Positions 8,655-33,366 of a stretch of 64,000 nucleotides of DNA are shown piece after piece. Under the pieces are notes generated by a model that made no database searches, was not told the DNA's origin, and saw nothing but the letters and a program-made list of their open reading frames with translations. Position numbers and translations under genes: made by a program. Numbering within the stretch: the stretch's first letter is position 1; the number at the start of each line of letters is the position of its first letter. Source of the DNA: Candidatus Woesearchaeota archaeon (lineage in GTDB: Archaea; Nanobdellota; Nanobdellia; Woesearchaeales; UBA525); the NCBI GenBank assembly GCA_027371725.1, contig DAHXMN010000001.1, positions 400-64,399 on the forward strand, written 5' to 3'.

Positions 8655-8727
8655 AGCCCCGTAGTGTAGCGGCCAATCATTCAGCCCTCTGGAGGCTGAG
8701 ACCTCGGTTCGAATCCGGGCGGGGCTA
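8655..8727 (+). tRNA. tRNA-Gln(CTG), intron-less; the target of the integrated element
   Basis: Acceptor AGCCCCG/CGGGGCT plus A. Anticodon stem CAGCC/GGCTG with loop CT-CTG-GA. T-arm CTCGG-TTCGAAT-CCGGG. Confidence 0.8.
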
Positions 8728-8731
8728 TTAT
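8715..8731. repeat. attL: 17-bp core CCGGGCGGGGCTATTAT overlapping the tRNA-Gln(CTG) 3' end
   Basis: An identical 17-mer recurs at 30614..30630, and a 14/17 degenerate copy at 36044..36060. Confidence 0.8.
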
Positions 8732-8904
8732 TGTTTTTTCCATCTAGAGGACTCAACCGCGCCAGTATCGTATATTCCAGTATATACTTCCTCTCTGTTC
8801 TTCAGAGCTGCGAGGCGTTTCTCGAGAAGTTCGAGGACTTGGGCGATTGTCTCGCAGCGATATTCGCGCAGCAACCGTTCTTTCTCTTGTTCGAGGAGAT
8901 CCAT
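8728..8904 (-). CDS. small integrase-downstream ORF (58 aa) whose stop codon lies inside the att core/tRNA 3' end
   Basis: MDLLEQEKERLLREYRCETIAQVLELLEKRLAALKN... A paralogue (MDLLEQEKERLLRKYGCQTIQEV...) sits just past attR at 30556..30759. Confidence 0.45.
   Translation of the reverse strand: MDLLEQEKERLLREYRCETIAQVLELLEKRLAALKNREEVYTGIYDTGAVESSRWKKQ
8732..8740 (+). terminator. oligo-T tract (TGTTTTTTC) immediately after the tRNA; an archaeal-type terminator
   Basis: T6 run 3' of the tRNA discriminator. Confidence 0.4.
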
Positions 8905-8909
8905 GCCTC

Positions 8910-10253
8910 TTACGGGGCTTCATTGATAATTGTGACTGCCTCGGAGGATGTATGACGTTTTAGTTCTCTCTCGACGCGAAGGGTTTGGAGGATCGCTTGG
9001 ACTTCTTTGAGTGCCTCGTCTTGATTCTTGACTTGTTCTTGAAGTAAGACGATGTCGTTGGTTTTCTCTTGTAGTTGGCGCTCGAGCTCAGTCTTGGTCA
9101 CATCGACGTAGAGGTCGTCCTCTTGGATGGTGTCTTTCATGCCGAGGAGCTCTGTGTAGTAGTGGATCATGTCGGATTTCTTCCAACCGAAGCGGTACTT
9201 CAGAGCCGACTCGCTTTTGTAACGTGGCAGCCAGTAGCAAGCGCTCGCGTGGCGGAAGTCATACATGGTTAGTCCGTCGGCAATGATGTAGTATTTTCCG
9301 TTCTTCATCTGGGTTGTGCCTTTGAACTGACCGATTTTCAGAATTTTGAACCCCATGTTCTTGAGATATTTGTTGACGTTCGCGGGCGTCTTGGTGAACA
9401 AAGGAGTCTCAGGCCTGAGGCGTCTGTTGACGATGAACTCGCGGAGAAACCCACTGCAGAGCAGGAGTTTGATGCGTCGCCCGAAGGTCTTGCTCACTTC
9501 CTCCCGGATGGTAAGCGTATAGTGGCCGTCCTTCTCATTCCATTCGAGGTCGCTAACCCGGATGTTCATCATCTCCGTCGGGGCGCGGATACCGCTATCG
9601 AACAAGAAGAGCATCATAGTGCGATAGTAGAAGTTCGCTTCAGCACAGAGCTTGTTCAGATCGTCGATGGTAAAGTAGTTGAACTTTGGTTTGTCATCCC
9701 GACCATCCAGGTCCACTGTGACGTCGATTACAGCGACTCCTTTCTTGCGCTGTGTGCGCTCATACCAGTGCCAGAACGCCTTGAACGCCTTGACATACGT
9801 TCCCGCCGCCTTGATGGGAATGTGGCCCTTCGAACGCCCTCTAATCTCGCCTTCTCGCATCCGCTTGAGAAGGACCATGAGATCGCGCTCTCGGTCTGCC
9901 ATCTCGGGGATGTATGTAACGCCTAGCTGATCCTGGAGAATGATTGCCCAACTGTGTAGCTTGGTCTTGACGTTCCGGAGTCGGATGTAGGATCGTGGTC
10001 CTTTCGCGCTCTCGGGGCTGACATTTGCGCCGACTTCCATATCATCGAGATACTGGCGAAGCAGAGCAGCATTCTCTTCGGTGAGTTGTTCGAAGGGGCC
10101 GCCAAGCTCATAGCGCCAGTGGCGATAGGCTCGTTCGCTGTTGTGCGGGTCAATCTTTACCAAGGGCTTTACCTTCATCTTATCGACGGTACAGGGAGGG
10201 GGAGTTTTTAAAGACAGTCGAGGACGAATGGATATTTTCGAGTCGACGACCAC
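8910..10253 (-). CDS. int: tyrosine recombinase / integrase
   Basis: 447 aa. C-terminal catalytic signature YDFRHASACYWL (HxxR) ... MIHYYTE (nucleophile Tyr). Adjacent to attL. Confidence 0.8.
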   Translation of the reverse strand: MVVDSKISIRPRLSLKTPPPCTVDKMKVKPLVKIDPHNSERAYRHWRYELGGPFEQLTEENAALLRQYLDDMEVGANVSPESAKGPRSYIRLRNVKTKLHSWAIILQDQLGVTYIPEMADRERDLMVLLKRMREGEIRGRSKGHIPIKAAGTYVKAFKAFWHWYERTQRKKGVAVIDVTVDLDGRDDKPKFNYFTIDDLNKLCAEANFYYRTMMLFLFDSGIRAPTEMMNIRVSDLEWNEKDGHYTLTIREEVSKTFGRRIKLLLCSGFLREFIVNRRLRPETPLFTKTPANVNKYLKNMGFKILKIGQFKGTTQMKNGKYYIIADGLTMYDFRHASACYWLPRYKSESALKYRFGWKKSDMIHYYTELLGMKDTIQEDDLYVDVTKTELERQLQEKTNDIVLLQEQVKNQDEALKEVQAILQTLRVERELKRHTSSEAVTIINEAP

Positions 10254-10415: not shown

Positions 10416-10562
10416 ATGGTCAAAACGAAGATGCTCGTCATCAGGATCACGGAGAAGCAAGAGCAAACGCTCCGGGAGATGATGCTTACGCTCGGTTTCA
10501 GAAAGAAATCGGAGTACATCCGCTCAGCACTCTTCAAAAACACCGGGGTGACGAAGAAATGA
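10416..10562 (+). CDS. small ribbon-helix-helix (CopG-like) protein, 48 aa
   Basis: MVKTKMLVIRITEKQEQTLREMMLTLGFRKKSEYIRSALFKN. Not in the ORF track (under 60 aa). ATGA overlap with the next ORF. Confidence 0.5.
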   Translation: MVKTKMLVIRITEKQEQTLREMMLTLGFRKKSEYIRSALFKNTGVTKK

Positions 10563-10753
10563 ACGAATTCGAACTCCTCAGGGGCGAACGCCGCAGCTTC
10601 TTCTGTCCGAACAAACTCTGGAAAGAGCTCCTCGCACAGACGGATGACTGCGTTAGCGTTAGCACCTTTATACGACAAGCGATAATTGAGAAGATGTCGA
10701 AGGAATCGCCTGAACGCGAAGAATATTTTCAGAGTCTGCTTACAAGTGATTGA
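10559..10753 (+). CDS. small putative DNA-binding (RHH-like) protein
   Basis: 64 aa ... STFIRQAIIEKM. Preferred over the antisense ORF 10391..10678. Confidence 0.45.
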   Translation: MNEFELLRGERRSFFCPNKLWKELLAQTDDCVSVSTFIRQAIIEKMSKESPEREEYFQSLLTSD

Positions 10754-10767
10754 GAATAAAACATTCT

Positions 10768-11808
10768 TTATCTTGTTTTAATCTCTCCAATCGTGACAAT
10801 TTCAGGATTTAGTTCTTTGATTGTCTCGGCGATGTCTTTGAGAGTGTTTTTGACAAGATCGCCAGTATTGTTCTTTGCAGTGACTTTATCCATTTCTTGT
10901 TCGAGAACTTTCTCGGATGCTGATTTTCCCACTATGCTCTTTATTTTTTCTAAATCTTTTTCACGGTCATCTAATATATCTGCGAATTTAAGCATCTTTG
11001 CCTGTAGTTTAATTATCTCCGACGGTGTTTTCTTTATTTCGTGAGCATAGTCCTTCGCATCTAGGTCGATTGTCTTCGCGTATAACCTGAATGCATCGGC
11101 CATCTCTTTATAATTTTCTACACCGACGGTGATTGACCCGCCGAAGTATGAAAGTTTCGCAACAATTGTCTTTTTCAGTTCATTCTCGAATGCTTCTTTC
11201 TCCTCGGTCCCTAAGGATGTTTTTTCGGAGAGGTTCTGAAGTGATATGCCGAGTAAAATCGGATTTTCTGTCGTGAAGGTCAACGTTTTCTGTCTTCCAT
11301 CAACAGCAATTCTCACCGAATCGCTGAACGGCTCTATGCTAAGGAGCTTTTTGTAGGAATAGTTATAGCTCTTGAATTGACCAGCATAGATAACTCTTTT
11401 TGAGGTTATATACAAGATTCCTGAGTCGATTTTGCGGAGTTCACCATGTGATTCAGCTTGACCGGAACCCATGTTGAACCACCAGCCCTTTGCAATTCTG
11501 ATACTGTGCCCAGTCCTGACATAATTTCTTATCGCGCGCTCTTCATAGAGGCTTGAAGGTTGGGCATACGTGATAATCTCATCTTTAGGGAGAATCAGCT
11601 TTGCTCGAGCATTCTTGACGTCTTCCTTCATTTCAATATACTTCTCGAATTGCATCACCGGCGATTCTTTCTTTTTTGAGTTGATTGCCCAGCTAACCAA
11701 GTAAATGATAAGACAGATGATGCCTATTGGCCATAAAACAATCAAAAGAATAATGATAAGTATTCTGAGCCAGATATTCAGCCCATCAAACCACGACTTG
11801 AAGGACAT
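10768..11808 (-). CDS. membrane-anchored hypothetical protein
   Basis: N-terminal TM (ILIIILLIVLWPIGIICLIIYLVSWAI) followed by a soluble domain. AT-rich codon usage like the rest of the element. Confidence 0.55.
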   Translation of the reverse strand: MSFKSWFDGLNIWLRILIIILLIVLWPIGIICLIIYLVSWAINSKKKESPVMQFEKYIEMKEDVKNARAKLILPKDEIITYAQPSSLYEERAIRNYVRTGHSIRIAKGWWFNMGSGQAESHGELRKIDSGILYITSKRVIYAGQFKSYNYSYKKLLSIEPFSDSVRIAVDGRQKTLTFTTENPILLGISLQNLSEKTSLGTEEKEAFENELKKTIVAKLSYFGGSITVGVENYKEMADAFRLYAKTIDLDAKDYAHEIKKTPSEIIKLQAKMLKFADILDDREKDLEKIKSIVGKSASEKVLEQEMDKVTAKNNTGDLVKNTLKDIAETIKELNPEIVTIGEIKTR

Positions 11809-11826
11809 GATTTTTGCCTCATCTTG

Positions 11827-12597
11827 TTATTTATAAAACATTTTCTTTTTTGTCATTTTCAGCATCTTTTTGCTCTGTTTTCTTATGGTGACCTCTATCA
11901 CGCCAGTCGTGTTTGCCACCTGTCTCTGTGTTCTCAATTCGCTGTTCTCCTTCGCTGCGAGGTAGAGGGCTGCCGCTACGATGGTCTCGGGGCGTTGTCC
12001 CCTACTCTTTTGCCGCTCTACAATCTCGGCGGCCCGGCTGATGGTCTCTGCTTTGAGTTCAAGGCGTGAGCCGAAGCGCTGGACGAGATCTACGGGCTTA
12101 ATCGGGCTCAAGCGCAGGCCGAGCCCCCTAGTGAGGAGTCTGTAGGCTCTGAGCATCTTCGTCTTGCTGACGCTGCTGTAGGCCGTAATCTCCAGCGGTG
12201 TCTTGGGGATGTCGTGGAGGAGACAGGCGGCGTAGACGCTCGCGTAGAGGAGGCTCTGGTTGTCCCGTCCCCGATTGAGGCCTTTCTCGGCTGCTTGGGT
12301 GAAGATGAGGAAGGACTCGGTGGTAATCCGGTCTGGGAGCTTGAGCTTGCCCGTCAGGAGGCTAATCTGTGCCTTGGCGGCCTGGAGGTTCTTCTGCTTC
12401 GTGCTGAAGAGCCAGGCGGTTTTGACAATCCTGCCATCGTATTGGAACGTTCCGGCTGTCGCTACAGCGGGCTGCGCAGGGCGGTTTATTTCGCCTTGGT
12501 GCTCGGTTGGGCTGTCTTCGGTGATGAGGCCGCAGGCTATGCAGACGACCTCGTATCCGGCTTCTTTGAGGGTTCCGCCGCATTCAGGGCATCTCAT
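11827..12597 (-). CDS. tfb: transcription factor B (TFIIB) homologue encoded on the element
   Basis: N-terminal Zn ribbon MRCPECGG...VVCIACG, two cyclin-like repeats, and C-terminal HTH RTQRQVANTTGVIEVTIRK as in TFB. Confidence 0.75.
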   Translation of the reverse strand: MRCPECGGTLKEAGYEVVCIACGLITEDSPTEHQGEINRPAQPAVATAGTFQYDGRIVKTAWLFSTKQKNLQAAKAQISLLTGKLKLPDRITTESFLIFTQAAEKGLNRGRDNQSLLYASVYAACLLHDIPKTPLEITAYSSVSKTKMLRAYRLLTRGLGLRLSPIKPVDLVQRFGSRLELKAETISRAAEIVERQKSRGQRPETIVAAALYLAAKENSELRTQRQVANTTGVIEVTIRKQSKKMLKMTKKKMFYK

Positions 12598-12896
12598 GAT
12601 TCCACCTCCTCCGTGAAGTACAGGAGCACTGGCATGATCTTCTTTTCGTGGAGTTCCTTGACCCTTGCCAGTGCCTGTTCGACGCTGAGGCAGAGCTCCA
12701 TCTTGTAGCCTACCGGCTTGTCCCCTTCGAAAAGGTTCCTGATGGGCTTCTTCAGGTCTATTCTTCGTCTTCTATCGTTGTAGAAGACCTTGCCAGCGAC
12801 GCTGATAATTTTATCCTGCGTGGTGACTGGCTGCTGCATACAACACCCCCTTTGGCTTGTTGCTGTTGTTGCACTCCCAGCCGAATCAGAATTCAC
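12594..12896 (-). CDS. hypothetical small protein (start uncertain; could begin at MQQPVTT)
   Basis: ATGA overlap with tfb. No recognisable domain. Confidence 0.4.
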   Translation of the reverse strand: MNSDSAGSATTATSQRGCCMQQPVTTQDKIISVAGKVFYNDRRRRIDLKKPIRNLFEGDKPVGYKMELCLSVEQALARVKELHEKKIMPVLLYFTEEVES

Positions 12897-13356: not shown

Positions 13357-16305
13357 TTACCGGGAGGTTTGGGTCCTAATGAACTCCTGGAGTTCGGTGC
13401 GGACGAGGAGGCGGACGCCCGGAGCGATGCGCTCGTAGTGCGGTCTGAAATCGCTGTCCGCGAGGATGATGACGAGTCGCTTCCCGTATTGGTTCTTGAG
13501 TTCTGCGAACTTCTTTTCAAGTCGAGATTTGTGCTTCTTGAATCCGAGACCAGTTTCTACCTCTACCGCGATCTCTTTTCCGGCCTTGTTCTTGAAGAGC
13601 AGGTCGACTTTGTCAGTCACGCTCACGTCAACTGCAAGCCCGCGTTTCATGAGTTCGTCTTTGAGGTTTAGAACGATGAACGTATGCTCTGGGCTCTCAA
13701 TGTTGTTGTCCTTAATCCAGCATTCTTCCTGGCGCGGCTTCCCAATCGGCATGAACATTCCTGGCGAGTAGCCTTGATTGGTGAGGAAATTCTTCTCATC
13801 TATGGTGAGATCTGCACCGTAGTAGAGCCCTTGCTTCGGATCAAGGGTGATGTTGACCTCGCGCCGCTCATCGGGAACGACTTTGCTCTCAGATTCGTTC
13901 GGGTTCGTGGTGACCAGAAGGTGCTCTTTCTCGGATGCGATGACGGTGAGTTCCTGGTGGTCGTTGTCCAGAATCAAGATGCCCCTGCCTTGCGTGGCGG
14001 TAAGGAGGTATTCGCGTTCCGGGTTGCTCAGATGGAACGTTCTGACGACCGAATCGATGATCGCGGCTTTCTGGCGGAGGAGGAAGCTGTAGCTGCTGTT
14101 CGCAAGGACTGCGTGTCCCGCGCCGCTGTTGATGAGGTCAGCCACATCCTGCGTGATGAGCAGGAGGCCCATGTTGAACTTTCGGCACGTCTTGACAATC
14201 TCGAAGAGGTAGCTCGCTTCTTCTGTGTGGCTGAGGAGGCTCCACGCTTCGTCCACCACCAGGAGTTTTTTGCCGGGGCGGCGCTTCATGGTCATGTAGG
14301 CGTAGTCCAGGATGAGGAACATGACGACGGGCTTGACTTGCTTGGGCATATCCCCTATGTTGAAGCAGACGAAGTCCTTGCCGTAGTTGATGTTGCTCTG
14401 CTTGTTCAGGAAGCCGAAGACACCCTCGGTGTAGAGGTAGAGGCGGTTGATGAGCGCCCGGTACGTGACCTTCTCAGACTGCGCCGCCTGGGAGTCCATG
14501 CTCACGAGAGTGTGGTACAGGTCGCCCAGGATTGGCGGCTTCTTGTTCTTGTACACGTCAGCCGTGATGCCCTTCTTGGCGTAGGTGACGTTGACTGCCC
14601 GGTCCAGGATGCTCTTCTGGATCTCGCTGAGCTCGCCGAACATGATTCGGAACAAGTCCATGAGCGCCAGGCGTTTTTCGACGTAATCGTGGCCCATGAG
14701 GTCGAGGGGGTTGATGATGGTCGCGCTGGTTCGGCTTATGGTGACGTGCTCGCCGCCACAGGCCTGGACGAGCCCTGCATACTCGCCTTGCGGGTCCACG
14801 ACCGTGACGCACGTGCCGTTCATGAGCTGGCGGCTGATCATGAGCTTGGTGAAGTAGCTCTTTCCTGCACCACTGGTGGCGAGGACGATGCCGTTCGCGT
14901 TGCTCAGGCTGAATAGGTCCTTGATGTAGGGCACCCCGTTCTTGTTCAGGCCGAGGAGGGTTCCGGTCTCCTCCATGGTGAGGAAGGGGCTGGTGCATGG
15001 GAAGAACGCGCTCAGAGCCCCGGTGGTGACGTTGCGTTTGAGGCCGAGCCAATCCTTGCCCAGGGGCATCATGGCTTTGTACGCCGCTGCCTGGCGAAAC
15101 AGGGGCGTTGTCGGGATAATCATGATGCTCTGGAGCTCTGCCTCTACTTTGCGGGTCAGGAGGTCCAGGTCGGCCTTATTCGCGGCTTTACACGCGATTA
15201 AGAGGCTGACATTGAAGAGCTTCTCCTCGCCCTTCTGGAGCGCCTCGAGGACCTTGAGGGTGTCCTTGTACTTAATCTCCAGGGAGGGGTTGACGCTGTG
15301 GTGCTGTTCCTCCGCATACAGGTCGGCTCGTTGCTTCTGGAGCTCCCGGTTCAGGAGGACCATCGTTGATTCGATGGTGAATGGCTCAATCTGGATGCTC
15401 AGGTCGTAGTTCTCATTGCTGCTGATGAGCTTGTCCAGGAAGCCACTTTCCACGAGGCGCGGGTACCCGTCAGCCGCGATGACCCTGATGAGCTGGCCGT
15501 CGACTTGGAGGTGGTCGATGTTGTCCCTGACCCTGCCTGGCGCCAGGAGGTAGTGGAGGCCGGAAACCCCGATCGGAGGCTCCCGGTCCGACGCCCGGTA
15601 GTATCGCTTGAGCATCTCCAGTAGCGCCTTGTCGTTCAGCCGGACGGCGTGCAGGCCGAGCCCTTTGAGTCGGTCAAGGCAGACCCTGCATTGGATGTCC
15701 AAGCTGCTCCGTTCCGGGATGATGAGGTAGAACTCCCGGTTGCGTTGCGTCGCCATCCGGCTCTTCGTGAACGCGGCGAACTCGTCATAGAGCGTCTCGT
15801 TCTTCGTCCGTTTCTTGAGGCTCTCCAGGTAGGGTTCGAGACTGAGCTCTTGCGTCGTCACGATGAACTGGACGGGGAACTCGAGGCTATTCAGGAACTT
15901 CTGGAACCCGATGATAATCGACTCCTGTTCTTCATTCGTTTTGATCCCGAAGTTCAAGGGCGTAATCCGAAGCAGGGCGACCTTCTCTTCGGAGACGATG
16001 GTGTTGTTCTCAATCTTCTTGACCGGGACGAGGCGCTCCATCCGCTTCGTGCCGAGACGGGACTCGCGGAACTGGAGGTATCGGGAGGCGTTCCGCAGCC
16101 AGATGCCGAGGTCGAAGAAGATGAACATCATTCCCAGGACGAAGGGGATGATGGCGAGGCAGAGCTTCAGGTCCATGCTCAGATTGCTCGTCAGGACCAT
16201 CAGGGTGAGGGTGCCGAAGAGGGCTGCCCAGCCGAGTTGGACGAAGGTCAAGCCGAACATGATGCGCTCTTTGTGCTGGAGTTGCTGGGGAATTTCGTAG
16301 GCCAT
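13357..16305 (-). CDS. VirB4/TrbE/TraC-like conjugation ATPase (AAA-like, DUF87-type) with N-terminal TM segments and a C-terminal nuclease-like domain
   Basis: 982 aa. Walker A TSGAGKSYFTKLM, Walker B LLVVDEAWSLL and N-terminal hydrophobic helices. Confidence 0.7.
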   Translation of the reverse strand: MAYEIPQQLQHKERIMFGLTFVQLGWAALFGTLTLMVLTSNLSMDLKLCLAIIPFVLGMMFIFFDLGIWLRNASRYLQFRESRLGTKRMERLVPVKKIENNTIVSEEKVALLRITPLNFGIKTNEEQESIIIGFQKFLNSLEFPVQFIVTTQELSLEPYLESLKKRTKNETLYDEFAAFTKSRMATQRNREFYLIIPERSSLDIQCRVCLDRLKGLGLHAVRLNDKALLEMLKRYYRASDREPPIGVSGLHYLLAPGRVRDNIDHLQVDGQLIRVIAADGYPRLVESGFLDKLISSNENYDLSIQIEPFTIESTMVLLNRELQKQRADLYAEEQHHSVNPSLEIKYKDTLKVLEALQKGEEKLFNVSLLIACKAANKADLDLLTRKVEAELQSIMIIPTTPLFRQAAAYKAMMPLGKDWLGLKRNVTTGALSAFFPCTSPFLTMEETGTLLGLNKNGVPYIKDLFSLSNANGIVLATSGAGKSYFTKLMISRQLMNGTCVTVVDPQGEYAGLVQACGGEHVTISRTSATIINPLDLMGHDYVEKRLALMDLFRIMFGELSEIQKSILDRAVNVTYAKKGITADVYKNKKPPILGDLYHTLVSMDSQAAQSEKVTYRALINRLYLYTEGVFGFLNKQSNINYGKDFVCFNIGDMPKQVKPVVMFLILDYAYMTMKRRPGKKLLVVDEAWSLLSHTEEASYLFEIVKTCRKFNMGLLLITQDVADLINSGAGHAVLANSSYSFLLRQKAAIIDSVVRTFHLSNPEREYLLTATQGRGILILDNDHQELTVIASEKEHLLVTTNPNESESKVVPDERREVNITLDPKQGLYYGADLTIDEKNFLTNQGYSPGMFMPIGKPRQEECWIKDNNIESPEHTFIVLNLKDELMKRGLAVDVSVTDKVDLLFKNKAGKEIAVEVETGLGFKKHKSRLEKKFAELKNQYGKRLVIILADSDFRPHYERIAPGVRLLVRTELQEFIRTQTSR

Positions 16306-16306
16306 G

Positions 16307-20533: not shown

Positions 20534-20651
20534 TCTGATCCACTAATTCTTAAACGATCTCCTAATCCCTTTATTTAAATGTTGTCACAGTCGATTCATT
20601 TTTAAAGATGCTGAGAATCAGAAGCCGCATCTGACGCAAGTGTTTGGACGC

Positions 20652-23545: not shown

Positions 23546-23732
23546 CTTTGTGCTCCTTCTGGCTGTATCCGTCCGCCCACTGTTTGTAGGAGTCGGTGTA
23601 TCTTCCTTTGGCCGCCGAGAGGTTCTTTAATTCATTCTCAAGAACATCGAGCAGAAACGATTTCAAATGCTCGCTTTCGTCTAATTCGGAGATTTTCCTT
23701 GTGATTATCTTATTCAGTTCTGATCGTCTCAT
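23532..23732 (-). CDS. small helical protein (66 aa) embedded in the operon
   Basis: Its start overlaps the helicase stop (ATGA at 23729-23732) and its 3' end overlaps the SMC start. Confidence 0.45.
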   Translation of the reverse strand: MRRSELNKIITRKISELDESEHLKSFLLDVLENELKNLSAAKGRYTDSYKQWADGYSQKEHKDVDL

Positions 23733-25873
23733 TGTGGTACGCTCAACAGGGCTTGATATTTAGTCAGATTATTCTTTACGGTCAAGGGGTTCCTTGCTGA
23801 CTGCAGGAACTCGTCAACCCTCAATAACTCCCGCCTTAACGCTGAACGCTCTGACTCCGATATTTTTAAAGGTATTCTTTCCCAAGGGAAAACCAAGACG
23901 TCATGTATAATCGAGAACTCTTTTCCCGGCGAGCGTCTCAGTATTCTCCCTCTTCTTTGAATAAACTCTACCGGATTCCCGCTACTCGCCAAAATAATTG
24001 CTCTTTCAATTCCTGGGACGTCGATACCTTCATCTAGGACCTTCATAGCAATCACTGCTTGATATTTGTCCTCCTGGAACAACCTTATGATTTCTTGCCT
24101 ATATTCAAGGCTTTCTTCATGAGTTATCTGATGAGCCCTAATTTTCTTGTCGTGCAGTATCTCCTTGACCCGTTCTATCTGTTTATCGGAACAATAGATT
24201 AGTGTTCGTTTAATATCTGGTATTGAAGAAAGGATTTTCTCAAAAGCAGCCCATTTTGCCTCAGCATTAACGAGTATTCTTGACCGCTCAAGAATCATCA
24301 TGAATATTTTATCGTCGACTTTTCCCTTGTTGGCGTGTATTGCTCGTGCTATCCGAGTTGAAAGCGACTCATATTTTTCTCTTTCTTCATCAGTCAATAT
24401 AGCAATTTCCGCATAATATTCGTATTCGGTCAGAAACTCAGGTATGGCCTGTTTCATGCTGAATTCAAAACATATCCCTTCAAAGTAGTCGAGTAGTTCC
24501 TGTGTCCCTTCGGGGTCCATGTATATCTCTGGTGTGGCGCTCAGACCAAGACGACCGATAAACTCCGGAAGCATCCCTTTCCTTGTCTCAGGTGCCCACG
24601 CGTGATGTACTTCGTCGCAGACCAATAGCTTGGTCTCTTCAGTTTTATTCACGAAATCTATTAAATCCTTCGAACAGAATGAATCATATGTTGCTACAGC
24701 AAAAAGATTCTCGGCTCTTCCTAGACGAAGCTTCAGAATCCCCGTCTTCAAGTCGGCAGCCCACACGGATTTGTTCTGCATGACTGGAATTATGTTTTTG
24801 AAACCTTCCGCCTCTAGGTTTTCTATCCATTGGGAGACGAGTAGCTGTGTTGGTGCAACAATCACTACCAACGACTTAGGATATCTTTTCAGGAAGGCGT
24901 CTATGGCGCGTAGAGCAGTGAATGTCTTTCCCGTTCCAGTCGCCATCTTCAATATGCCCTTAAAATTCTTCGACCAGTTCCTGATGGCCTCTTCTTGGTA
25001 CTCCCTGAGCTCCCTTCTCGAAGGTTCTTTCTGCTCCCGTCTAAATGAGTATCTCCCTTTGTACTCGTCCTTGGCTCTCCTCAGACAGTATTCTGAGAGC
25101 GTGTTGAATTCTTCTTCGGTCTTCGGTGATCGCTGTATTAGTTGTTTTTTGAAAGCATCACTAATCGGATAAACGCGCATATTCCCTGTCAAGTCATTCC
25201 AGAGCTCTTCGAAGTCCTCAAGATCGTGTTTTAGGTGTCGCTCTTTGTCGGATTCCACCCACCCTAGGTAGACGTGGAATTTTTCGTGGTTAAATAACCA
25301 TCCAGATGCGGTCTCGTTATCTGACCCGAAAAACTCAATCATGTTTCCGGAGGAATCTTCAAGAATGCCATATTTCTGGTGTTCTATTCCTTTGTTGCCA
25401 CCAGGAACTGCTATGCGAATTTCCAGACGACCACTTCTTACCATCCATCCAAGCATCTTTAGATGATCTTTCTTTAATTCATCTTCGCTGCAATCAATTT
25501 CGGTGATGATGCTCTTTTCAGCTTCACTGATTGCTCTTGCTATTGTCTCCGCGTCGACTTCACTCAGCTTCACACTCGTAATCAGTTGCATACGACCGCC
25601 ATTCTTGATGAACTCAGCCATCCCTTTTGCTGCTACGGCCAGAGAGCTAGAAGAGAAGAACCCTGAGACGCGCTTGTAGGTTACTGCCCGGGACAAAGCA
25701 GGAATATAGAATGAGTCCAGAACGTCTTCTTTCGCAGAGTCATAGACTCCTTTGCTTTCCAAGCCTAAATCCCTGAGGCTCATGCTCGAGCTAATTGATT
25801 CGCTTTTAAAAAGGTATCTCGATAAATTCCAGTTTACGCACACGTTCAACAGCAAAATGGGCGTATTTTGCAT
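23729..25873 (-). CDS. fusion of a phospholipase-D (HKD) nuclease domain and an SF2 helicase (ResIII/DEAH-like)
   Basis: HKD motif HQKYGILED. Helicase motif I ATGTGKTF, motif II LLVCDEVHHAW, motif III SATP and motif VI QRRGRILRR. Confidence 0.75.
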   Translation of the reverse strand: MQNTPILLLNVCVNWNLSRYLFKSESISSSMSLRDLGLESKGVYDSAKEDVLDSFYIPALSRAVTYKRVSGFFSSSSLAVAAKGMAEFIKNGGRMQLITSVKLSEVDAETIARAISEAEKSIITEIDCSEDELKKDHLKMLGWMVRSGRLEIRIAVPGGNKGIEHQKYGILEDSSGNMIEFFGSDNETASGWLFNHEKFHVYLGWVESDKERHLKHDLEDFEELWNDLTGNMRVYPISDAFKKQLIQRSPKTEEEFNTLSEYCLRRAKDEYKGRYSFRREQKEPSRRELREYQEEAIRNWSKNFKGILKMATGTGKTFTALRAIDAFLKRYPKSLVVIVAPTQLLVSQWIENLEAEGFKNIIPVMQNKSVWAADLKTGILKLRLGRAENLFAVATYDSFCSKDLIDFVNKTEETKLLVCDEVHHAWAPETRKGMLPEFIGRLGLSATPEIYMDPEGTQELLDYFEGICFEFSMKQAIPEFLTEYEYYAEIAILTDEEREKYESLSTRIARAIHANKGKVDDKIFMMILERSRILVNAEAKWAAFEKILSSIPDIKRTLIYCSDKQIERVKEILHDKKIRAHQITHEESLEYRQEIIRLFQEDKYQAVIAMKVLDEGIDVPGIERAIILASSGNPVEFIQRRGRILRRSPGKEFSIIHDVLVFPWERIPLKISESERSALRRELLRVDEFLQSARNPLTVKNNLTKYQALLSVPQ

Positions 25874-26540
25874 CGAGTTCGCAACCGAGGAATTGTCTGC
25901 CTGTCTGGCGTGCCGCTACGGCTGTGCTGCCGACCCCCATGAATGGGTCTAAAACCACATCTCCGGGCTTGCTAGAGGCCTCTATGAGGCGTTTAAGCAC
26001 CGCCAGGGGTTTCTGAGTGGGGTGAACTGAGCCGCCTTCTGGGCTGCGGAGTCGTTCTGCCCCGGTCAGGATTGGGGTGATGAAGAGGTTCTTCATGGCC
26101 CCTTGGCTGGGGAAGTTGAAGGTAATCTTGTTGAGCTTGACCTTCTCGTTGACGGCGTAGACGATGTATTCGTTGGCGAAGACCCAGTTGGTCTTGCTCA
26201 GGCGGGGTGGCGGGTTGGTCTTGCTCCAAACGAGGAGGTTGCGGAAGAACCAGGCCTCCTGGAAGATGCGCATGTAGATGGGGATTTGTTCGGTGCTGCA
26301 GAACACGTAGATCTGCCCGGTCGGCTTCAGGACGCGCTTGAGCTCCTTCATGACCGGGACGGGGTCGAAGCCATAGTCCCAGTCGCCGAAGTCCTTCCGG
26401 ATATGCCGTCCATCGTAGACGAGGTTTTGTTTTCTGGAGATGTTGTAGGGTGGGTCGGTCACGACGAGATCGACGCTGTTGTCAGGCAGTTCTTTGAGAT
26501 ATTCGAGGCAATCCATGCAGGCGATGGTGTTCAGTTTCAT
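25806..26540 (-). CDS. beta-class DNA methyltransferase (N6-adenine or N4-cytosine; DPPY type)
   Basis: DLVVTDPPYNI near the N-terminus. Its 3' end overlaps the helicase start. Confidence 0.8.
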   Translation of the reverse strand: MKLNTIACMDCLEYLKELPDNSVDLVVTDPPYNISRKQNLVYDGRHIRKDFGDWDYGFDPVPVMKELKRVLKPTGQIYVFCSTEQIPIYMRIFQEAWFFRNLLVWSKTNPPPRLSKTNWVFANEYIVYAVNEKVKLNKITFNFPSQGAMKNLFITPILTGAERLRSPEGGSVHPTQKPLAVLKRLIEASSKPGDVVLDPFMGVGSTAVAARQTGRQFLGCELDAKYAHFAVERVRKLEFIEIPF

Positions 26541-26604
26541 GCCCTGTAACGGGTTGCACTTTCAGAAATTCGGGACTCGGAAAATGTACATCAAAAAAGA
26601 AGTT

Positions 26605-26736
26605 TTAGTCACGGCCCTCATTAGCACCATCTTCGAACCCGTCCTGGTAGAGCTTGTTTAGGACGGTGTCGAGCTCTTCCTTCGTCTTGGCCGTCTTGAC
26701 CGCTTTCCGATACCCCTGTAAGTACTTGTCCGCCAT
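26605..26736 (-). CDS. tiny conserved ORF (43 aa), copy 1
   Basis: MADKYLQGYRKAVKTAKTKEELDTVLNKLYQDGFEDGANEGRD. A 41/43-identical paralogue is at 33222..33353. Confidence 0.45.
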   Translation of the reverse strand: MADKYLQGYRKAVKTAKTKEELDTVLNKLYQDGFEDGANEGRD

Positions 26737-26748
26737 GTCATTCACCCC

Positions 26749-26877
26749 CTATTCTCGCAATAGATCGTCGAAATCGACGTAGTCATGCGGGTTCTCCACG
26801 TTCCGGAACTGGCGCAGCCGATCATCCCGGAAGAACCGCTTCCCTTTCATTTCCACTATTGGTAGTTGGGTTACCAT
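26749..26877 (-). CDS. tiny conserved ORF (42 aa), copy 1
   Basis: MVTQLPIVEMKGKRFFRDDRLRQFRNVENPHDYVDFDDLLRE. A paralogue with one substitution is at 33367..33495. Confidence 0.45.
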   Translation of the reverse strand: MVTQLPIVEMKGKRFFRDDRLRQFRNVENPHDYVDFDDLLRE

Positions 26878-27424
26878 AGGTTATCGCCTCCTTAGAAAGC
26901 CCGAGCCTGAACGAGGCGATTATTCTGTCTCGGAGAATGTATGACATCTGAAGCCACTGGTCAACCGCGCGCAGCGCATTTAAGCCGATCTCACCTTCTT
27001 CGTGAGTGGCGCTTCACATCCTCAAGGGCAACGGGAGGGCGCTCGATCACGACGTCGTCCGGTTCGCGTTAGCGTACACGCCATGCCTCCTCGTAGATTG
27101 TGCAGACGCGGCCGACCCATACCAACACCCAGACACAGATGTTGCGACGTTCCTTGCAGTTCATGTGGTTCAGGCGGAACTCCTGTACCGGCTCCGAGAC
27201 ATCCTCCGCGCCCTGCCGCAGACCGTGCGGCGGCTCGGCGTCAAACGTGTCGTCATCACGCAATTCACGCGCCTTTTCCATTATCACGATGAGGCGGAGA
27301 ACGCGGATATTTACGAGGAAGTGTGGCGGCGGATCGGCGAAGCTGCAAAGGAGCTCGACGTCGTTGTCGGCGTTCCGGAGGGATCAGTCCATGAGGCGTA
27401 TGCGGAACGCCTCGGAGGGTTAAG

Positions 27425-27745: not shown

Positions 27746-29831
27746 GCGACCACTCCGCACCACCATCTACCTCGAAGCAACCCAACAAGCAGAAGAATAC
27801 CTCACTCACCAGACAATCCCGTTTCGTCGTGTCCGGCGACAGAACTATCGCAGGGAATGGCAGGACGTCTTCGAGATTGTCGTCCCTCATCTGGCCATGT
27901 TCGAGCGCTTCGTCCGATGGATCGAAGAAGGTACGAAGCACCAGGTCGCCCTCTACAACGCAGACATCACCCCGGAACAACGCTTCCTTTACGAGCACGG
28001 CCTCAGCGCCGGAACAACCGTCCTCCTCGACGGCGAGGAGTTCCACGTTCTTGACTCCAACGAAGCGGCCCCTTTCACCGTCGCACGGCTCACCGTCAGA
28101 ACTGACAAGCCCGTGGCGGCGGCAGAAGATACGCCGATACGCGGAATAGAACTAAACGAGACCCGGTTCGACGGGGAAGAACACTCGGTTCTTGAACGGT
28201 TCGCGGCGGCGTTTGTTCGTCTTGATCCGGACATCATCATCCTCGAACACGGCTACGCAGTCCTACCACACCTTGTTCGCCGCCTAGCAGCCCACAAGCT
28301 CTCAGTCGCGTTTCACCGTTGGGACGACACGCCAATCACTTACAAGGGTGGCAGGACGTTCTTCACCTACGGCAGGGTCCGTTACCAAGACTACGCCCTC
28401 GTCCTCCACGGACGGTTCCTCATTGACACGATGACGACCGTGGGAAGCACGTGCTCGCCGGATGGCATCCTCGAACTCTGCCAGCTCAGCGGGGTCCGGT
28501 TTCCGCAGGTCTGCGCCCGGAGCTTCGGAGCAGCCTTCCAAGGCGCACTCGTCAAGCAACTCCTTGCCCACCACTTCCTCGTTCCGTTCAAAGAGAAGCC
28601 CATCGACGAGCCCTTGAGCTTCATCGACCTTGTCAAAGGCGATCGAGCAGGCCAGTACCTTGATCCGGTCCTTGGCTTCCATCAGAACGTGGCAGAAATC
28701 GATTTCTCCTCGATGTATCCGTGGCTCATGTTCAACTACAACATCAGCGCTGAAGCCCTCCAATCAAAAGAAGAACCCCTCGTCGATGTACCAGGGCTTC
28801 CGCTCACGGTCTCGCACCGGCATAAAGGACTCGTCCCGCTGGCGATTAAGCCGTTCTTGGAGCGGCGTATGGCGTACAAGCGCACCCCAACCCCTGTTCA
28901 CAAGGAGCGTGCAGCTGCGCTGAAATGGGTCCTCGTGAGCAGCAACGGCTACCTGCGTTTCCGCGAGTTCAAGCTCGGCCTCCACACGAGCCATATGGCG
29001 CTCTGCGCCTACGCCCGCGAAACACTCCTCGCCTCGATGCGGCTCGCCGAAGAACAAGGATTCCGAGTCCTGCACGGCATCGTCGACAGCCTCTACCTCA
29101 CCAAACCAGGCATGACTGAGGAAGACGTCCGACGCTTCGCCAAAGACCTCGAAATCCTGACGGGCATCCCGGTCAGCATGGACGGCATCTTCAAATGGGT
29201 CGTCTTCCTCCCCAGCATCAACGACGACGACCGGGCACTCCCGGCACGGTACTACGGCGTCTTCACGGATGGCGAGATCAAAGCGCGTGGCCTTGAAGTC
29301 CGACAACTCAGCAGCGCACGCGTCGTCCAAGAATTCCAACACGAAATCCTCCAAGCCTTGAGCACCTGCTCCACCGCCGAGGAGATCAGAGAGGCGGCGC
29401 CCTTGCTCTGTCGGTTGCTTCGGCGGTTGCTCGGACGACTCGACCACGTCCCCCCGGAGTGGCTGACAATAAAGGTCTGTCTGAGCAAGACCGAGTACAA
29501 GCACAACGTCCCGCAAAAAGCCGTCGTCGAAGCCTACGCGAAACGAGGAATCCCTATCCAGCCTGGCCAATTCGTTCGCTACCTCTACCAAGAATCAGGT
29601 CCAGTCATCCCCGAGGACTACACCGGACCACCCGACGCAGACCGCTACGAAGCCCTATTGACCCGCGCCCTCTTCATCGTCCTCCAGCCCTTCGGTTTCA
29701 GCCGCGAATGGATTAGGGACCACACCCAACAAAGCCGACAGACGAGAGTCCCCGAATATGGAGAGATATTCGATAATACATTAAAGCTGCACGACCTTCC
29801 TGGTGCCTCATGTGCGGACGCTTCACCCTGA
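27660..29831 (+). CDS. family-B DNA polymerase, compact and apparently exonuclease-deficient
   Basis: Motif A EIDFSSMYPWLM (DxxSxYP), motif B-like LVSSNGYLRF, motif C HGIVDSLYL (a YGDTDS variant) and KxRG as IKARG. No recognisable ExoI DxE. Confidence 0.65.
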   Translation: MKAWFMDAYRHQSNLILWFKTPDENIRLERPLRTTIYLEATQQAEEYLTHQTIPFRRVRRQNYRREWQDVFEIVVPHLAMFERFVRWIEEGTKHQVALYNADITPEQRFLYEHGLSAGTTVLLDGEEFHVLDSNEAAPFTVARLTVRTDKPVAAAEDTPIRGIELNETRFDGEEHSVLERFAAAFVRLDPDIIILEHGYAVLPHLVRRLAAHKLSVAFHRWDDTPITYKGGRTFFTYGRVRYQDYALVLHGRFLIDTMTTVGSTCSPDGILELCQLSGVRFPQVCARSFGAAFQGALVKQLLAHHFLVPFKEKPIDEPLSFIDLVKGDRAGQYLDPVLGFHQNVAEIDFSSMYPWLMFNYNISAEALQSKEEPLVDVPGLPLTVSHRHKGLVPLAIKPFLERRMAYKRTPTPVHKERAAALKWVLVSSNGYLRFREFKLGLHTSHMALCAYARETLLASMRLAEEQGFRVLHGIVDSLYLTKPGMTEEDVRRFAKDLEILTGIPVSMDGIFKWVVFLPSINDDDRALPARYYGVFTDGEIKARGLEVRQLSSARVVQEFQHEILQALSTCSTAEEIREAAPLLCRLLRRLLGRLDHVPPEWLTIKVCLSKTEYKHNVPQKAVVEAYAKRGIPIQPGQFVRYLYQESGPVIPEDYTGPPDADRYEALLTRALFIVLQPFGFSREWIRDHTQQSRQTRVPEYGEIFDNTLKLHDLPGASCADASP

Positions 29832-30469
29832 TAACGCCGATGAACGAGCTCGTCCAACGCTTCCGAGTAGAAGCACCCAGCAAAGAATGGAAAGCACGGT
29901 ACAACGCGGCACCCACGCAGGAACTCCTCATCATCCCCCAGGATTACCCTGAGAAGATCGTGGCGGCGCGATGGGGCCTCGTTCCGCATTGGGCGAAGGA
30001 CACGAGCATCGGCTACAAAATGATCAACGCCAAAGCAGAAACCCTCGCAGAAAAACCCTCCTACAAGCCCCTCCTCGGACAAAAACGGTGCCTCGTCCTC
30101 GCCGACGGGTTCTACGAATGGAAACACGTCGGCAAGACAAAAACCCCCTTCAGAATCACCAAGCCCGACGGCAAGGCATTCGCCTTTGCCGGTCTCTACG
30201 ACGACTGGAAGCACGACGGCGAAACCCTCCGCAGCTTCACCATCATCACCACCGAACCAAACCCAATCATGAAGCCGATTCACGACCGCATGCCAGCAAT
30301 CCTCCCCGCAGAAAAGGAGCAAGAATGGCTCACAGGCGAGTCAGCCTCCGCCCTCAAACTCCTCAAGCCATTTGCAGGCAAACTCGCCCTACAGCAAGTC
30401 TCGGAGAAAGTCAACATTCCCGCAAATGACGACCCATCCGTCCTCAAAGGACCGCAACTACTCCGATAG
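29810..30469 (+). CDS. SOS-response-associated peptidase (SRAP/YedK/HMCES family)
   Basis: N-terminal MCGRF (catalytic Cys2). About 220 aa with a family-like sequence throughout (…WGLVPHW…). Confidence 0.8.
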   Translation: MCGRFTLITPMNELVQRFRVEAPSKEWKARYNAAPTQELLIIPQDYPEKIVAARWGLVPHWAKDTSIGYKMINAKAETLAEKPSYKPLLGQKRCLVLADGFYEWKHVGKTKTPFRITKPDGKAFAFAGLYDDWKHDGETLRSFTIITTEPNPIMKPIHDRMPAILPAEKEQEWLTGESASALKLLKPFAGKLALQQVSEKVNIPANDDPSVLKGPQLLR

Positions 30470-30474
30470 ATAGT

Positions 30475-30630
30475 CATTCTCCGAGGCAAGCTAACAAACA
30501 ATCGCAGACATTCTCATGGCATGAACGAGAATTTTATAAACCGCATCACACCCATTCACACTAGCACGCTGGAGGACTGGTGGAGTCCTCTCGATACCGG
30601 GAACGGCTCACCGCCGGGCGGGGCTATTAT
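30475..30630. repeat. element right-end repeat A (about 155 bp) ending in the attR 17-mer (30614..30630)
   Basis: About 75% identical to 35900..36060. Contains catgaacgagaattttataaa, atcacacccattca and gagtcctctcgatac blocks. Confidence 0.7.
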
Positions 30631-33353: not shown

Positions 33354-33366
33354 GGCGTTCACCCCC

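Follow-up and report, generated by a model that had tools for sequence, protein, structure and literature searches.

Conjugation in archaea is poorly understood, and the only systems that have been dissected, Ced and Ted, are chromosomal importers in Crenarchaeota. Known archaeal conjugative plasmids are without recognizable pilins or relaxases (PMC9905601). A further group is formed by the integrative and conjugative elements (ICEs) of thaumarchaea, all of which encode TFIIB/TFB; the placing of a TFB gene alongside those for a type IV secretion system (T4SS) is an established feature of such elements (Krupovic et al. 2019, PMC6563490). Herein we describe an insertion at a tRNA-Gln(CTG) gene in a 64,000-nucleotide stretch of DNA from a Candidatus Woesearchaeota archaeon (contig DAHXMN010000001.1), called “the window” below. 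The insertion consists of element A (8715–30630, 21.9 kb) and, next to it, element B (30631–36060). We consider it probable that element A is an integrative element of the ICE kind and that element B is a derivative accreted beside it. Element A looks like a complete conjugation-type element in which all three minimal T4SS parts are recognizable, the VirB6-like one as a candidate.

In the way that it would work, the element most resembles the thaumarchaeal ICEs. These are likewise chromosomal and likewise combine a tyrosine integrase and short att repeats with VirB4, VirB6-like and VirB3-like proteins and a TFB; no relaxase has been found in them, they carry restriction–modification and defence cargo, and decayed derivatives lie alongside (PMC6563490). 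However, in the thaumarchaeal ICEs VirB4 is paired with VirD4/TraG, TFIIB is coupled to a ParB, and parts of a type IV pilus (TadC, FlaI and prepilin) are present (PMC6563490), whereas the window element is without VirD4, ParB and type IV pilus parts and has a TrbC/VirB2 pilin, a VirB4–nuclease fusion and a DPANN host. Neither a VirD4/TraG partner ATPase nor ParB was found among the scanned element open reading frames (ORFs).

The minimal trio of VirB2-like, VirB6-like and VirB4 proteins, again with no relaxase, is common to the Ced/Ted systems of Crenarchaeota (van Wolferen 2016; Beltran et al. 2023, PMC9905601). There, too, the N terminus of the channel is homologous to the pilin, and TedC shares with the pilin described here a cleavable-looking signal peptide. 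An earlier reading of the sequence alone (the first-pass annotation) had proposed a Ced-like or pT26-2-like element, but the first suggestion does not hold: the window VirB4 scores 37.2 bits against the CedB equivalog NF041017 (cut-off 700) and 27.7 bits against CedD (cut-off 600), compared with about 300 bits against VirB4 families of monoderm bacteria. In addition, Ced/Ted are domesticated chromosomal importers for which PMC9905601 reports no nuclease fusion, whereas the window genes lie on an att-bounded element with an integrase. In sequence, the VirB4 appears closest to the monoderm MPF-FATA systems, namely the CD1110-family VirB4 of Firmicutes ICEs and plasmids and the Mbov_0397/Mbov_0395 proteins of the Mycoplasma/Spiroplasma ICE, which give the best VirB4 matches and also have a VirB3-like hairpin fused to VirB4. 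Nevertheless, the window protein falls below the equivalog cut-offs, and its bacterial counterparts work with a relaxase and a coupling protein but are without a TFB.

Members of the pT26-2 family are of similar character in being mid-sized (17–38 kb), often located in tRNA genes and rich in membrane proteins, with a VirB4-like AAA+ ATPase proposed to move DNA (PMC6972569). The products of their seven core genes (t26-5p, 6p, 7p, 11p, 13p, 14p and 15p) have no detectable similarity outside the family, which is confined to Thermococcales and Methanococcales, and the Thermococcales integrases are suicidal, splitting their own gene (PMC6972569). In contrast, core proteins of the window element match outside models (VirB4, TraC and TrbC), its host is DPANN-like, and its integrase gene is intact. 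On these comparisons the element is outside both the Ced systems and the pT26-2 family, the latter being set apart by its published description only.

The integration site and the layout of the array are as follows.

8655..8727, plus strand: tRNA-Gln(CTG), the integration target, without an intron here (ARAGORN; Rfam tRNA 54.7 bits)
8715..8731, plus strand: attL, a core of 17 bp in which the final 13 nt of the tRNA are followed by 4 nt more; exact repeat of 30614–30630
8728..8904, minus strand: 58-aa left-end ORF (ORF list), filling the gap between att and the integrase gene
30475..30630, plus strand: right arm with the second att copy (30614–30630), which closes element A as its attR and opens element B as its attL
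30631..36043, no strand: element B, a 5.4-kb integrase-less derivative (blastn and tblastx against element A; Pfam)
36044..36060, plus strand: third, decayed att copy CCGGGCGGGGtcATTcT, matching at 14 of 17 positions; distal end of the array, in register within a homologous right arm

As the first-pass annotation had noticed, a perfect 17-bp duplication begins in the 3′ end of tRNA-Gln(CTG). A scan of the window finds the 17-mer CCGGGCGGGGCTATTAT in exact form at 8715–8731 and 30614–30630 only, and its first 13 nt are the end of the tRNA. In shuffled sequence, 0.02 matches would be expected for the 17-mer at up to two mismatches. Its single near-match, at 771–787, is the 3′ end of a second tRNA gene, the intron-bearing tRNA-Gln(TTG) at 683–783. 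This means that the repeat is real and tRNA-derived, and it disposes of the concern that the 17-mer might be a dispersed genomic repeat unrelated to the tRNA. (Default ARAGORN missed intron-bearing tRNA-Gln genes or called them Arg(CCG); these were resolved by reading the sequence, by Rfam and by ARAGORN -i.) The att core, CCG[G/A]GCGGGGCTA, shows no variation over five junctions in three genomes.

The boundaries first proposed, 8715 and 30630, are indeed the limits of element A, but they miss the integrase-less element B and the third att copy. Repeat finding and blastn align the left ends of the two elements (8845–8906 with 30700–30761, 82% identity), a middle portion holding the 5′ end of a methylase gene and two small ORFs (26435–26945 with 33051–33563, 87%) and the right arms (30475–30623 with 35904–36053, 81%). 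Because the third att copy is contained in this homologous 150-bp right arm, the insertion is a tandem array that spans 8715–36060. The 58-aa left-end ORF is kept at the left end of every element copy and has homologues in loci L003, L005 and L099, although searches with protein-family models returned no family match for it.

Independent support for a discrete element comes from a related genome (GCA_964603995.1, contig CAZRXH010000009.1; the sister genome), where att copies at the corresponding tRNA enclose the same backbone, but with different cargo. The host flank is common to both (ABC2 92% identical, ABC ATPase 90%), and the backbone proteins are 81% (integrase and ribbon–helix–helix (RHH) protein), 90% (N4/N6 DNA methyltransferase), 91% (membrane protein), 93% (TFB, p100 and VirB4) and 100% (pilin) identical. 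Beyond its tRNA, the sister genome has first an unrelated element of about 7 kb, then an att copy CGAATCCGGGCGGGGCTAT and then the A-like element of about 25.4 kb. The right end of the latter aligns with the right arm of element A (30475..30630); at this far end lie the homologous arm, an att copy CCGGGCGGGGCTAc and then a third left-end small ORF, the sign of a third remnant. Since the tRNA-proximal 7-kb element (L003 11672–18629; genes mostly unannotated) encodes another, conventional integrase (Phage_integrase, 35.6 bits), this tRNA-Gln(CTG) serves as target for at least two families of integrase. The sister cargo consists of an Hsp70-like/AAA block, GmrSD, HEPN, MutH, Vsr and another C5 methyltransferase, and a 314-aa ORF stands where the window has a PolB–SRAP pair, which is absent there. 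Alike in backbone but not in defence cargo (Pbe and methyltransferases versus GmrSD/HEPN/MutH–Vsr), the two genomes offer a view of how elements of this kind shuttle immune systems.

Other relatives use a different tRNA-Gln gene. A locus with a close integrase (L005; 85% identity, or 79% over a longer tblastn alignment) abuts an intron-bearing tRNA-Gln(TTG), and a remnant lies beside tRNA-Gln(TTG) in a third related genome (L013). As far as comparison of sequences can tell, the sister genome, the tRNA-Gln(TTG) relatives and the invariant core establish a discrete unit with conserved arms and backbone, exchangeable cargo, integration at tRNA-Gln and a tendency to accumulate in tandem. The initial proposal of a discrete element with a tRNA-targeting integrase and a conjugation-like module is therefore well supported by the att repeats and the sister genome.

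The genes that would form the transfer apparatus make up one minus-strand operon, running from 18660 to 13357.

18328..18660, minus strand: VirB2/TrbC-like conjugative pilin, 110 aa (Pfam T4SS_pilin and TrbC)
16307..18331, minus strand: 674-aa membrane protein, read as VirB6/CedA-like (alignment, transmembrane segments and position)
13357..16305, minus strand: 982-aa VirB3–VirB4–nuclease fusion (Walker A GAGKS at 479–483, Walker B DEAW at 685–688)
13357–13929, minus strand: the part of that gene (aa 793–982) for a PD-(D/E)xK-fold domain of 190 aa, conserved across the VirB4 family

Counts of relatives in this report come from a profile scan of JGI metagenomes, which yielded at least 460 confirmed loci, 80 of which were fetched, and from 98 fetched loci overall, with 10-kb flanks. 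A scan of genome contigs with VirB4 gave 5 loci.

The pilin exceeds the Pfam cut-offs for both T4SS_pilin (45.3 bits, cut-off 26.6) and TrbC (31.9 bits, cut-off 27.9). It begins with a signal peptide, after which two hydrophobic helices are separated by a charged loop, and it is present in 54 of the 80 metagenome loci. Its only NCBIfam match, Mbov_0395, is weak; a PDB profile search gave nothing useful, and neither PLSDB nor INPHARED gave a match.

The 674-aa protein, first described as a glycosylated polytopic membrane protein, begins with a signal peptide, continues with an ectodomain that is rich in Cys and contains 20 N-x-S/T sequons, and ends in a polytopic domain of 280 aa (aa 395–674). 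This C-terminal domain occurs in 75 of the 98 fetched loci, and in distant relatives it stands alone (about 280–310 aa), ending at the start of VirB4. Its first hairpin matches T4SS_pilin in 23 of 37 members, and by hhalign it is a homologue of the pilin that the element encodes (probability 94.7%, E 6.4e-8), a relationship also reported for CedA/CedA1 and VirB6/VirB2 (PMC9905601). No VirB6/TrbL match was obtained in Pfam, nor any match in PDB, PLSDB or INPHARED. Based on its position, topology and pilin-like hairpin, we read the protein as a VirB6-like channel.

The third protein joins a PrgI/VirB3-like N-terminal transmembrane hairpin, a VirB4/TraC ATPase and a C-terminal PD-(D/E)xK-fold domain. 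Its ATPase matches Pfam P-loop_TraG with 94.7 bits (cut-off 25.8) and the solved structure PDB 4ag5 over aa 447–792 (1.5e-30). The NCBIfam models VirB4_plasma and CD1110 both give about 300 bits, and the equivalog scores (308.6 against a cut-off of 590, and 300.9 against 325) stay below their thresholds, so that by these models the ATPase is a VirB4 but one outside the named NCBIfam subfamilies. In the nuclease-fold domain, an acidic triad is invariant; the residues without variation are E870, H874, D901, E915, E917 and K932, and judged by the secondary structure of the model they would fall at the alpha1, beta2 and beta3 catalytic positions of the PD-(D/E)xK fold. The best-listed PLSDB matches to VirB4 have 23–33% identity, and none reaches past aa 825, so none covers the nuclease domain. 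Family members of this domain number at least 628 representative clusters.

One database result could be taken to mean that the insertion is an integrated provirus whose ATPase is a packaging enzyme: PHROGs places the N-terminal half of VirB4 in a ‘terminase large subunit’ family (1.3e-25), and tRNA-targeting integrases are typical of proviruses as well. However, Pfam and PHROGs reveal no capsid, portal, tail or other virion protein, the ATPase matches solved VirB4 and the TraC/VirB4 families far better, and a TrbC/VirB2 pilin is encoded in its operon. Nor did IMG/VR, when scanned by profile, yield a relative. Given the lack of virion genes and of an IMG/VR relative, we reject the provirus interpretation, to which we would assign almost no weight.

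We propose the following course of events for an ICE-type element. The integrase would recombine a 13- to 17-bp core identical to the 3′ end of the tRNA, so that the tRNA is regenerated and direct repeats are left. The excised element is predicted to have an attP junction of GGCTCACCGCCGGGCGGGGCTATTAT joined to TGTTTTTTCCATCTAGAGG; the empty site would read tRNA, GGGGCTATTAT and then CACTTTTGATG if element A alone were excised, and tRNA, CCGGGCGGGG and then TCATTCTTAGTGAGCG if the whole array were lost. The RHH proteins are likely regulators or directionality factors, and the TFB probably drives the element's own promoters; a conserved motif, ATACATTCTCCGAG, is found upstream of its operons. 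The pilin, the VirB6-like protein and the VirB3–VirB4–nuclease fusion would build a minimal, monoderm (MPF-FATA-like) T4SS-like apparatus that may carry the excised element DNA to another cell, with the PD-(D/E)xK domain supplying the DNA cutting or processing that in bacteria is the role of the relaxase. Variable slots contain defence genes, here a solitary PbeABCD between two methyltransferases, and a PolB–SRAP pair. The att structure, the gene content, the homologies and the recurrence of the bounded unit in a second genome are seen directly in the sequences; what we infer, in this scheme, is that the element still moves, that DNA is what the apparatus transports and in which direction, and what the nuclease, TFB and RHH proteins do. 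A nuclease fold fused to the motor ATPase is a concrete and testable candidate for the missing DNA-processing step.

A bolder possibility can be put forward tentatively. DPANN archaea are host-dependent, and gene exchange with their hosts is presumed. The locus might represent a large, hitherto undescribed DPANN family of DNA-transfer modules equipped with VirB2, a VirB6-like protein, VirB3–VirB4–nuclease and a dedicated TFB, in which the nuclease replaces relaxase and coupling protein. If so, it might be the first conjugation-type element to be recognized in ultra-small symbiotic archaea, moving DNA from one DPANN cell to another or between a symbiont and its host, with the low-GC cargo of a 62% GC genome as a trace of such traffic.

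Several observations weigh against an ICE-type element, and the first of them concern the machine itself. Relaxase and coupling protein are both required for DNA export in characterized bacterial systems. Scans of the element ORFs with family models, including Pfam and NCBIfam, found no relaxase and no VirD4/TraG/FtsK-type coupling protein, and the coupling protein is also absent from the called genes of relatives. Absence of a relaxase is the rule in archaeal conjugative elements (PMC6563490, PMC9905601). The VirB6 assignment comes from position, topology and the pilin-like hairpin, and the single-sequence structure model of the domain (pLDDT 56) was too poor to be used for a fold search. The activity of the nuclease-fold domain is predicted from its sequence, and the domain occurs outside VirB4 too: in about one third of its top 149 matches it either stands behind an unrelated N terminus of about 100–150 aa or forms a stand-alone protein of about 175 aa. 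It is thus a mobile module and not unique to VirB4. Furthermore, of the 21 relatives whose flanks reach 9 kb or more in either direction, just four have the integrase family within 10 kb of VirB4, which suggests that the module is in many cases not visibly part of such an element and may have a function for the cell. Its distribution, far wider than that of the integrase-bounded form, leaves room for a cellular role in import or interaction.

These data bear directly on the main alternative, which accepts the element as real but sees its T4SS-like module as a passenger, either a Ced/Ted-like DNA importer or a Patescibacteria-like device for symbiont–host interaction or effector delivery. The fused nuclease would then degrade or process incoming DNA. 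A VirB2/VirB6/VirB4 trio without relaxase or coupling protein is what Ced/Ted importers have (PMC9905601), and Patescibacteria T4SSs are mostly relaxase-less (PMC12102498). The same paper reports 37 Patescibacteria VirB4 proteins that group with archaeal ones. Besides its rarity near integrases, the module abounds in low-GC contigs of the DPANN type, where its relatives number at least 460, with some contigs reaching 0.9–1.6 Mb, and in one locus (L015) YD-shell/RNase toxins and a barstar immunity gene lie beside it. However, in both the window and the sister genome the module sits inside an att-bounded, integrase-bearing unit with swapped cargo, as in ICEs. Its VirB4 is far from CedB, as the scores above indicate, and the TFB, the RHH proteins with their weak NikA/MobC similarity and the integrase are typical genes of mobile elements. 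We therefore judge a passenger module to be unlikely, although it deserves to be kept in mind.

The remaining observations on the negative side concern mobility. No excised circle, empty site or junction read was seen, and the 5 genome-contig loci include no clean empty site. The core is 91–100% identical between the two genomes, as compared with 90–96% for host genes; because the core is about as similar as the host genes are, vertical inheritance of a fixed island is conceivable. One could accordingly picture a decayed, immobile genomic island that is passed on vertically and kept for its defence cargo, its repeats being relics. Element B and the third remnant of the sister genome indicate that decay is common at this site, and there are no circular contigs among the fetched loci and no attP junction pattern in IMG/VR. 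Yet the backbone genes are without exception intact ORFs whose catalytic residues are conserved, cargo has been exchanged, and close relatives use a different tRNA-Gln gene. The order tRNA–A–B in the window also differs from the order tRNA–X–A′–third remnant in the sister genome (X being the unrelated element and A′ the A-like one), as do the distal flanks, and these differences in order, content and flanks argue for independent insertion events. A relic island thus appears very improbable, and an ICE-type element remains our preferred interpretation.

Element B retains the left-end small ORF, a truncated N4/N6 methyltransferase gene (32722–33165), the small ORFs and the right arm. Pfam identifies in its cargo a 716-aa Big_5 surface protein (30869–33019) and ArsR, SHOCT, DUF302, DsrE and EamA genes (33617–35887), none of it related to the cargo of element A. 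Comparison of A with B by blastn and tblastx detected no integrase remnant. We take element B to be an older relative from which the genes for integration and transfer have been lost while both arms persist. In bacteria, an ICE can accrete with a cis-mobilizable element (CIME), as with ICESt3 and a CIME of Streptococcus, where a complete and an integrase-less element stand in tandem with common att sites. The tandem of A and B with a common att copy is similar, and by analogy to such a CIME, element B might be moved in trans by the integrase of A, alone or jointly with A. The Streptococcus system, however, is bacterial and has another integrase and another T4SS, so that trans-mobilization in the window is put forward as a possibility.

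The genes for integration and regulation lie at the left end of element A.

8910..10253, minus strand: tyrosine integrase, pNOB8-type (447 aa from GTG; 422 aa from ATG at 10178)
10416..10753, plus strand: two small RHH-like proteins, 48 aa (10416–10562) and 64 aa (10559–10753), recognized by inspection of the translations
11827..12597, minus strand: element-encoded TFB/TFIIB (Pfam TFIIB 5.1e-30 and Zn ribbon)
12594..12896, minus strand: p100, a 100-aa protein recognized by its conservation, in an operon with TFB

The 447-aa integrase is a real ORF, full length and unsplit, whose stop lies 179 bp inside the left att copy. The public gene call of the same protein (P0121) starts at the ATG at 10178 and is identical at 100% over its 422 aa. 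Its motif had been given as HxxR, but an alignment of 112 homologues reads Y-D-F-R-H, i.e. YxxR, within the pattern R (DSGIR)...K...Y-D-F-R-H...W (GW)...Y (HYY), in which DSGIR, YDFRH, GW and HYY are each conserved in at least 95% of the aligned sequences. Unsplit gene and R...YxxR...Y are the features that define pNOB8-type (class II) archaeal integrases (PMC8371274). Here the gene is intact, att lies outside it, the motif is R...YxxR...Y and direct repeats duplicate the 3′ end of the tRNA; by these criteria the integrase is pNOB8-type. It shares with the described members (She et al. 2004; Badel et al. 2021, PMC8371274) the intact gene, the att site in a tRNA 3′ end and the motif. However, it shows no BLAST-level similarity to any plasmid or virus record searched (PDB, PLSDB and INPHARED gave no match), its Pfam Phage_integrase score is below cut-off (22.3 bits; PHROG_1 integrase 1.5e-12), and its att core has 13–17 bp as compared with 40–50 bp for the Sulfolobales pNOB8 integrases, within a range of 8–60 bp for archaeal integrase att cores (PMC8371274). 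It also differs in that its family consists of DPANN sequences: a search collected 2189 homologues, and the named ones are Woesearchaeota/Nanoarchaeota proteins from metagenome-assembled genomes (MAGs). Several relatives at other loci have integrases that abut tRNA-Asp or tRNA-Glu genes.

The two RHH genes, divergent from the integrase gene, are present as first described, but family support amounts to sub-threshold matches of the 48-aa protein to NikA-like and MobC_2 models (E about 0.004). The 64-aa protein has 53–81% identity in relatives, and for the homologue in L015 a weak NikA-like match is on record. Each is a candidate regulator, excisionase (directionality factor) or oriT-binding accessory protein.

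The TFB and p100 genes adjoin the ATPase region and accompany VirB4 in relatives. TFB is next to VirB4 in L014, L015 and L017 and present in 13 of the 80 metagenome loci; p100 is 48–68% identical in 14 metagenome loci, nearly always adjoining TFB. Together, p100, TFB and RHH occur in relatives whose VirB4 is at least 57% identical, and the distant loci L042 and L057 also have p100 and TFB.

A motif, CTCGGAGAAYGTAT (or ATACATTCTCCGAG in the direction of the genes), was found six times in the array by a scan allowing three mismatches, where 0.64 would be expected.

8939, 10310, 18805, 26928 and 33546, plus strand: motif sites
35900, minus strand: motif site

It lies 35–145 bp upstream of the 58-aa ORF, the integrase gene, the pilin operon and the operon of small ORFs and methyltransferase, always on the strand opposite to the gene, and also in the right arm of element B. 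A shorter core, CTCGGAGAATG, occupies the matching place in the right arm of A (about 30475, minus strand); it failed the three-mismatch scan and was found by eye. The motif is kept at orthologous places in high-GC relatives only. It is a candidate for the promoter or operator of the element, possibly for its own TFB. We also noted that about 33 bp past the right-arm motif, beside a TTTTATAAA box, begins a short ORF (MNENFIN.ITPIHT...; 30521–30709 and 35950–36062) that reads through the att core. In a circular element it would continue into the left end, and it could be a junction-spanning gene or merely conserved arm DNA.

The VirB4 family extends well beyond the two genomes. A protein search returned 773 relatives, the best 120 of which are 48–93% identical and mostly full length, nuclease domain included, and the family is populated by Woesearchaeota/Nanoarchaeota MAG proteins. 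The 80 fetched metagenome loci all have 24–48% GC. Among the 98 fetched loci, att repeats around tRNAs were found in the window and L003 only, a scarcity owed to 10-kb flanks that rarely span a whole element. Full-text literature searches of incomplete coverage found no paper describing DPANN or Woesearchaeota VirB4/VirB2 elements, nor one on the 460 or more metagenome relatives of the module. These may already be known under automatic VirB4 annotations, given that NCBI names some homologues ‘VirB4 family type IV secretion system protein’. One relative, L015 (ENA ERZ27315199 k141_1533156, 15349–23000; VirB4 67% identical), has giant YD-shell/Laminin_G proteins after its T4SS-like cluster. One giant protein has a ribonuclease domain with a barstar gene adjoining, which makes this a polymorphic toxin locus, and PycTM lies upstream of the pilin.

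The host genes that flank the array are ordinary cellular ones: an ABC transporter, a VTT protein, a P-type ATPase, deoxyhypusine synthase, AMMECR1 and an M48 peptidase. The best named matches of deoxyhypusine synthase are all Candidatus Woesearchaeota/Nanoarchaeota (55–62% identity), and other relatives reach 92%. Judged by best hits rather than a phylogeny, the host is a Woesearchaeota-like DPANN archaeon whose GC content is unusually high. A haloarchaeal host, which the GC content might suggest, was rejected in view of these matches. The tRNA-Gln(CTG) of the sister genome (L003 18714–18834) has a 46-nt intron that its window orthologue is without; as host genes are about 90% identical, this is a recent gain or loss. 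The titles of some records conflict with their content. L008/L001 (CAZRXH010000009.1) is named ‘uncultured Bacteroidota bacterium’ despite its TFB and intron-bearing archaeal tRNAs, and L011 and L012 are titled ‘uncultured Methanosarcinales archaeon’ although they are DPANN-like with 31–43% GC. Such records are probably mis-binned or mislabelled third-party annotation (TPA) assemblies; the ‘Bacteroidota’ title is certainly wrong.

At the paralogous tRNA-Gln(TTG) of the window, about 1 kb of DNA with 39% GC (787–1830) follows the tRNA and holds a truncated AlbA_2/Schlafen ORF (795–1172) and a 175-aa ORF. Because relatives of element A (L005 and L013) use tRNA-Gln(TTG), this stretch may be the remnant of another element, although a second att copy was looked for there and not found.

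The genes between and around the backbone of element A are as follows.

10768..11808, minus strand: p346, a 346-aa membrane/coiled-coil protein, 40% GC; cargo unique to this copy of the element
18839..20533, minus strand: C5 cytosine DNA methyltransferase with a C-terminal extension, 44.5% GC; cargo (Pfam DNA_methylase 2.8e-38; PADLOC MTase_II 5.7e-51)
20652..25873, minus strand: solitary PbeABCD-like defence operon (PADLOC, Pfam and NCBIfam), made up of the next four genes
23729–25873, minus strand: PbeA, PLD-helicase (PADLOC PbeA 2.9e-218, full length)
23532–23732, minus strand: gene in the PbeB position, 66 aa, equal in size to the published 66 aa (PMC6459918)
21554–23545, minus strand: PbeC, DndD/SMC-like ATPase (PADLOC PbeC 2.2e-150, full length)
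20652–21563, minus strand: PbeD-like protein, dnd_assoc_4 fused to AlbA_2/Schlafen (dnd_assoc_4 30.7 bits, cut-off 74.25; Pfam AlbA_2)
25806..26540, minus strand: N4/N6 DNA methyltransferase, a backbone gene (Pfam N6_N4_Mtase 2.8e-44)
26593..26945, minus strand: two small conserved ORFs (about 43 and 41 aa) and their upstream region, common to element B and relatives L013 and L099
27660..30469, plus strand: PolB (723 aa) and an overlapping SRAP gene, cargo (Pfam DNA_pol_B over aa 295–645 only; SRAP 1.3e-72)

Pfam and PADLOC thus bear out the TFB, VirB4-like ATPase, pilin, two methyltransferases, SMC/PLD-helicase operon, PolB and SRAP of the first-pass annotation. No protein family above threshold was found for p346, and tblastn matched it in none of the fetched loci except L002, another assembly of the same contig. 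The N4/N6 methyltransferase is 91% identical in L013.

With strong PbeA and PbeC, a 66-aa gene between them and a fourth gene related to dnd_assoc_4, the defence operon resembles the PbeABCD part of DndCDEA–PbeABCD systems (Xiong et al. 2019, PMC6459918), although no PADLOC model matches the 66-aa ORF. It differs in that Pfam and PADLOC detect no dndCDEA genes among the element ORFs, the module is solitary between two methyltransferases, and its PbeD is fused to AlbA_2/Schlafen. Solitary pbeAC flanked by methyltransferases is found in 155 of 320 solitary loci (PMC6459918). The same arrangement of PbeABCD, C5 methyltransferase and pilin recurs in an assembly from an independent sequencing run (L101, Logan SRR13170412_172197), and the window's element variant therefore occurs in more than one sample. 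Runs SRR12217121–3 likewise contain this element or that of the sister genome.

The interior of the insertion had been characterized as largely 40–45% GC against a host of roughly 65%. This is true of p346 (40%) and of the block of C5 methyltransferase and Pbe genes (18839–25873, 42–45%) but of nothing else: the interior of element A averages 51.2% and the host about 62%, while the backbone genes (integrase, TFB, VirB4, membrane protein, pilin and N4/N6 methyltransferase) have 52–58% and PolB/SRAP 57–59%. This pattern suggests that the backbone has long resided in high-GC hosts and that low-GC sources recently contributed the cargo.

The PolB had been called exonuclease-dead, which is plausible given that Pfam finds no exonuclease-domain match in it. 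NCBIfam NF004416 gives 331 bits, below its cut-off, and archaeal PolB structures in PDB match at about 1e-24 over the polymerase domain only. The PolB and SRAP genes overlap by 22 nt. SRAP is an abasic-site sensor, and the pair resembles a damage-tolerance module carried as cargo.

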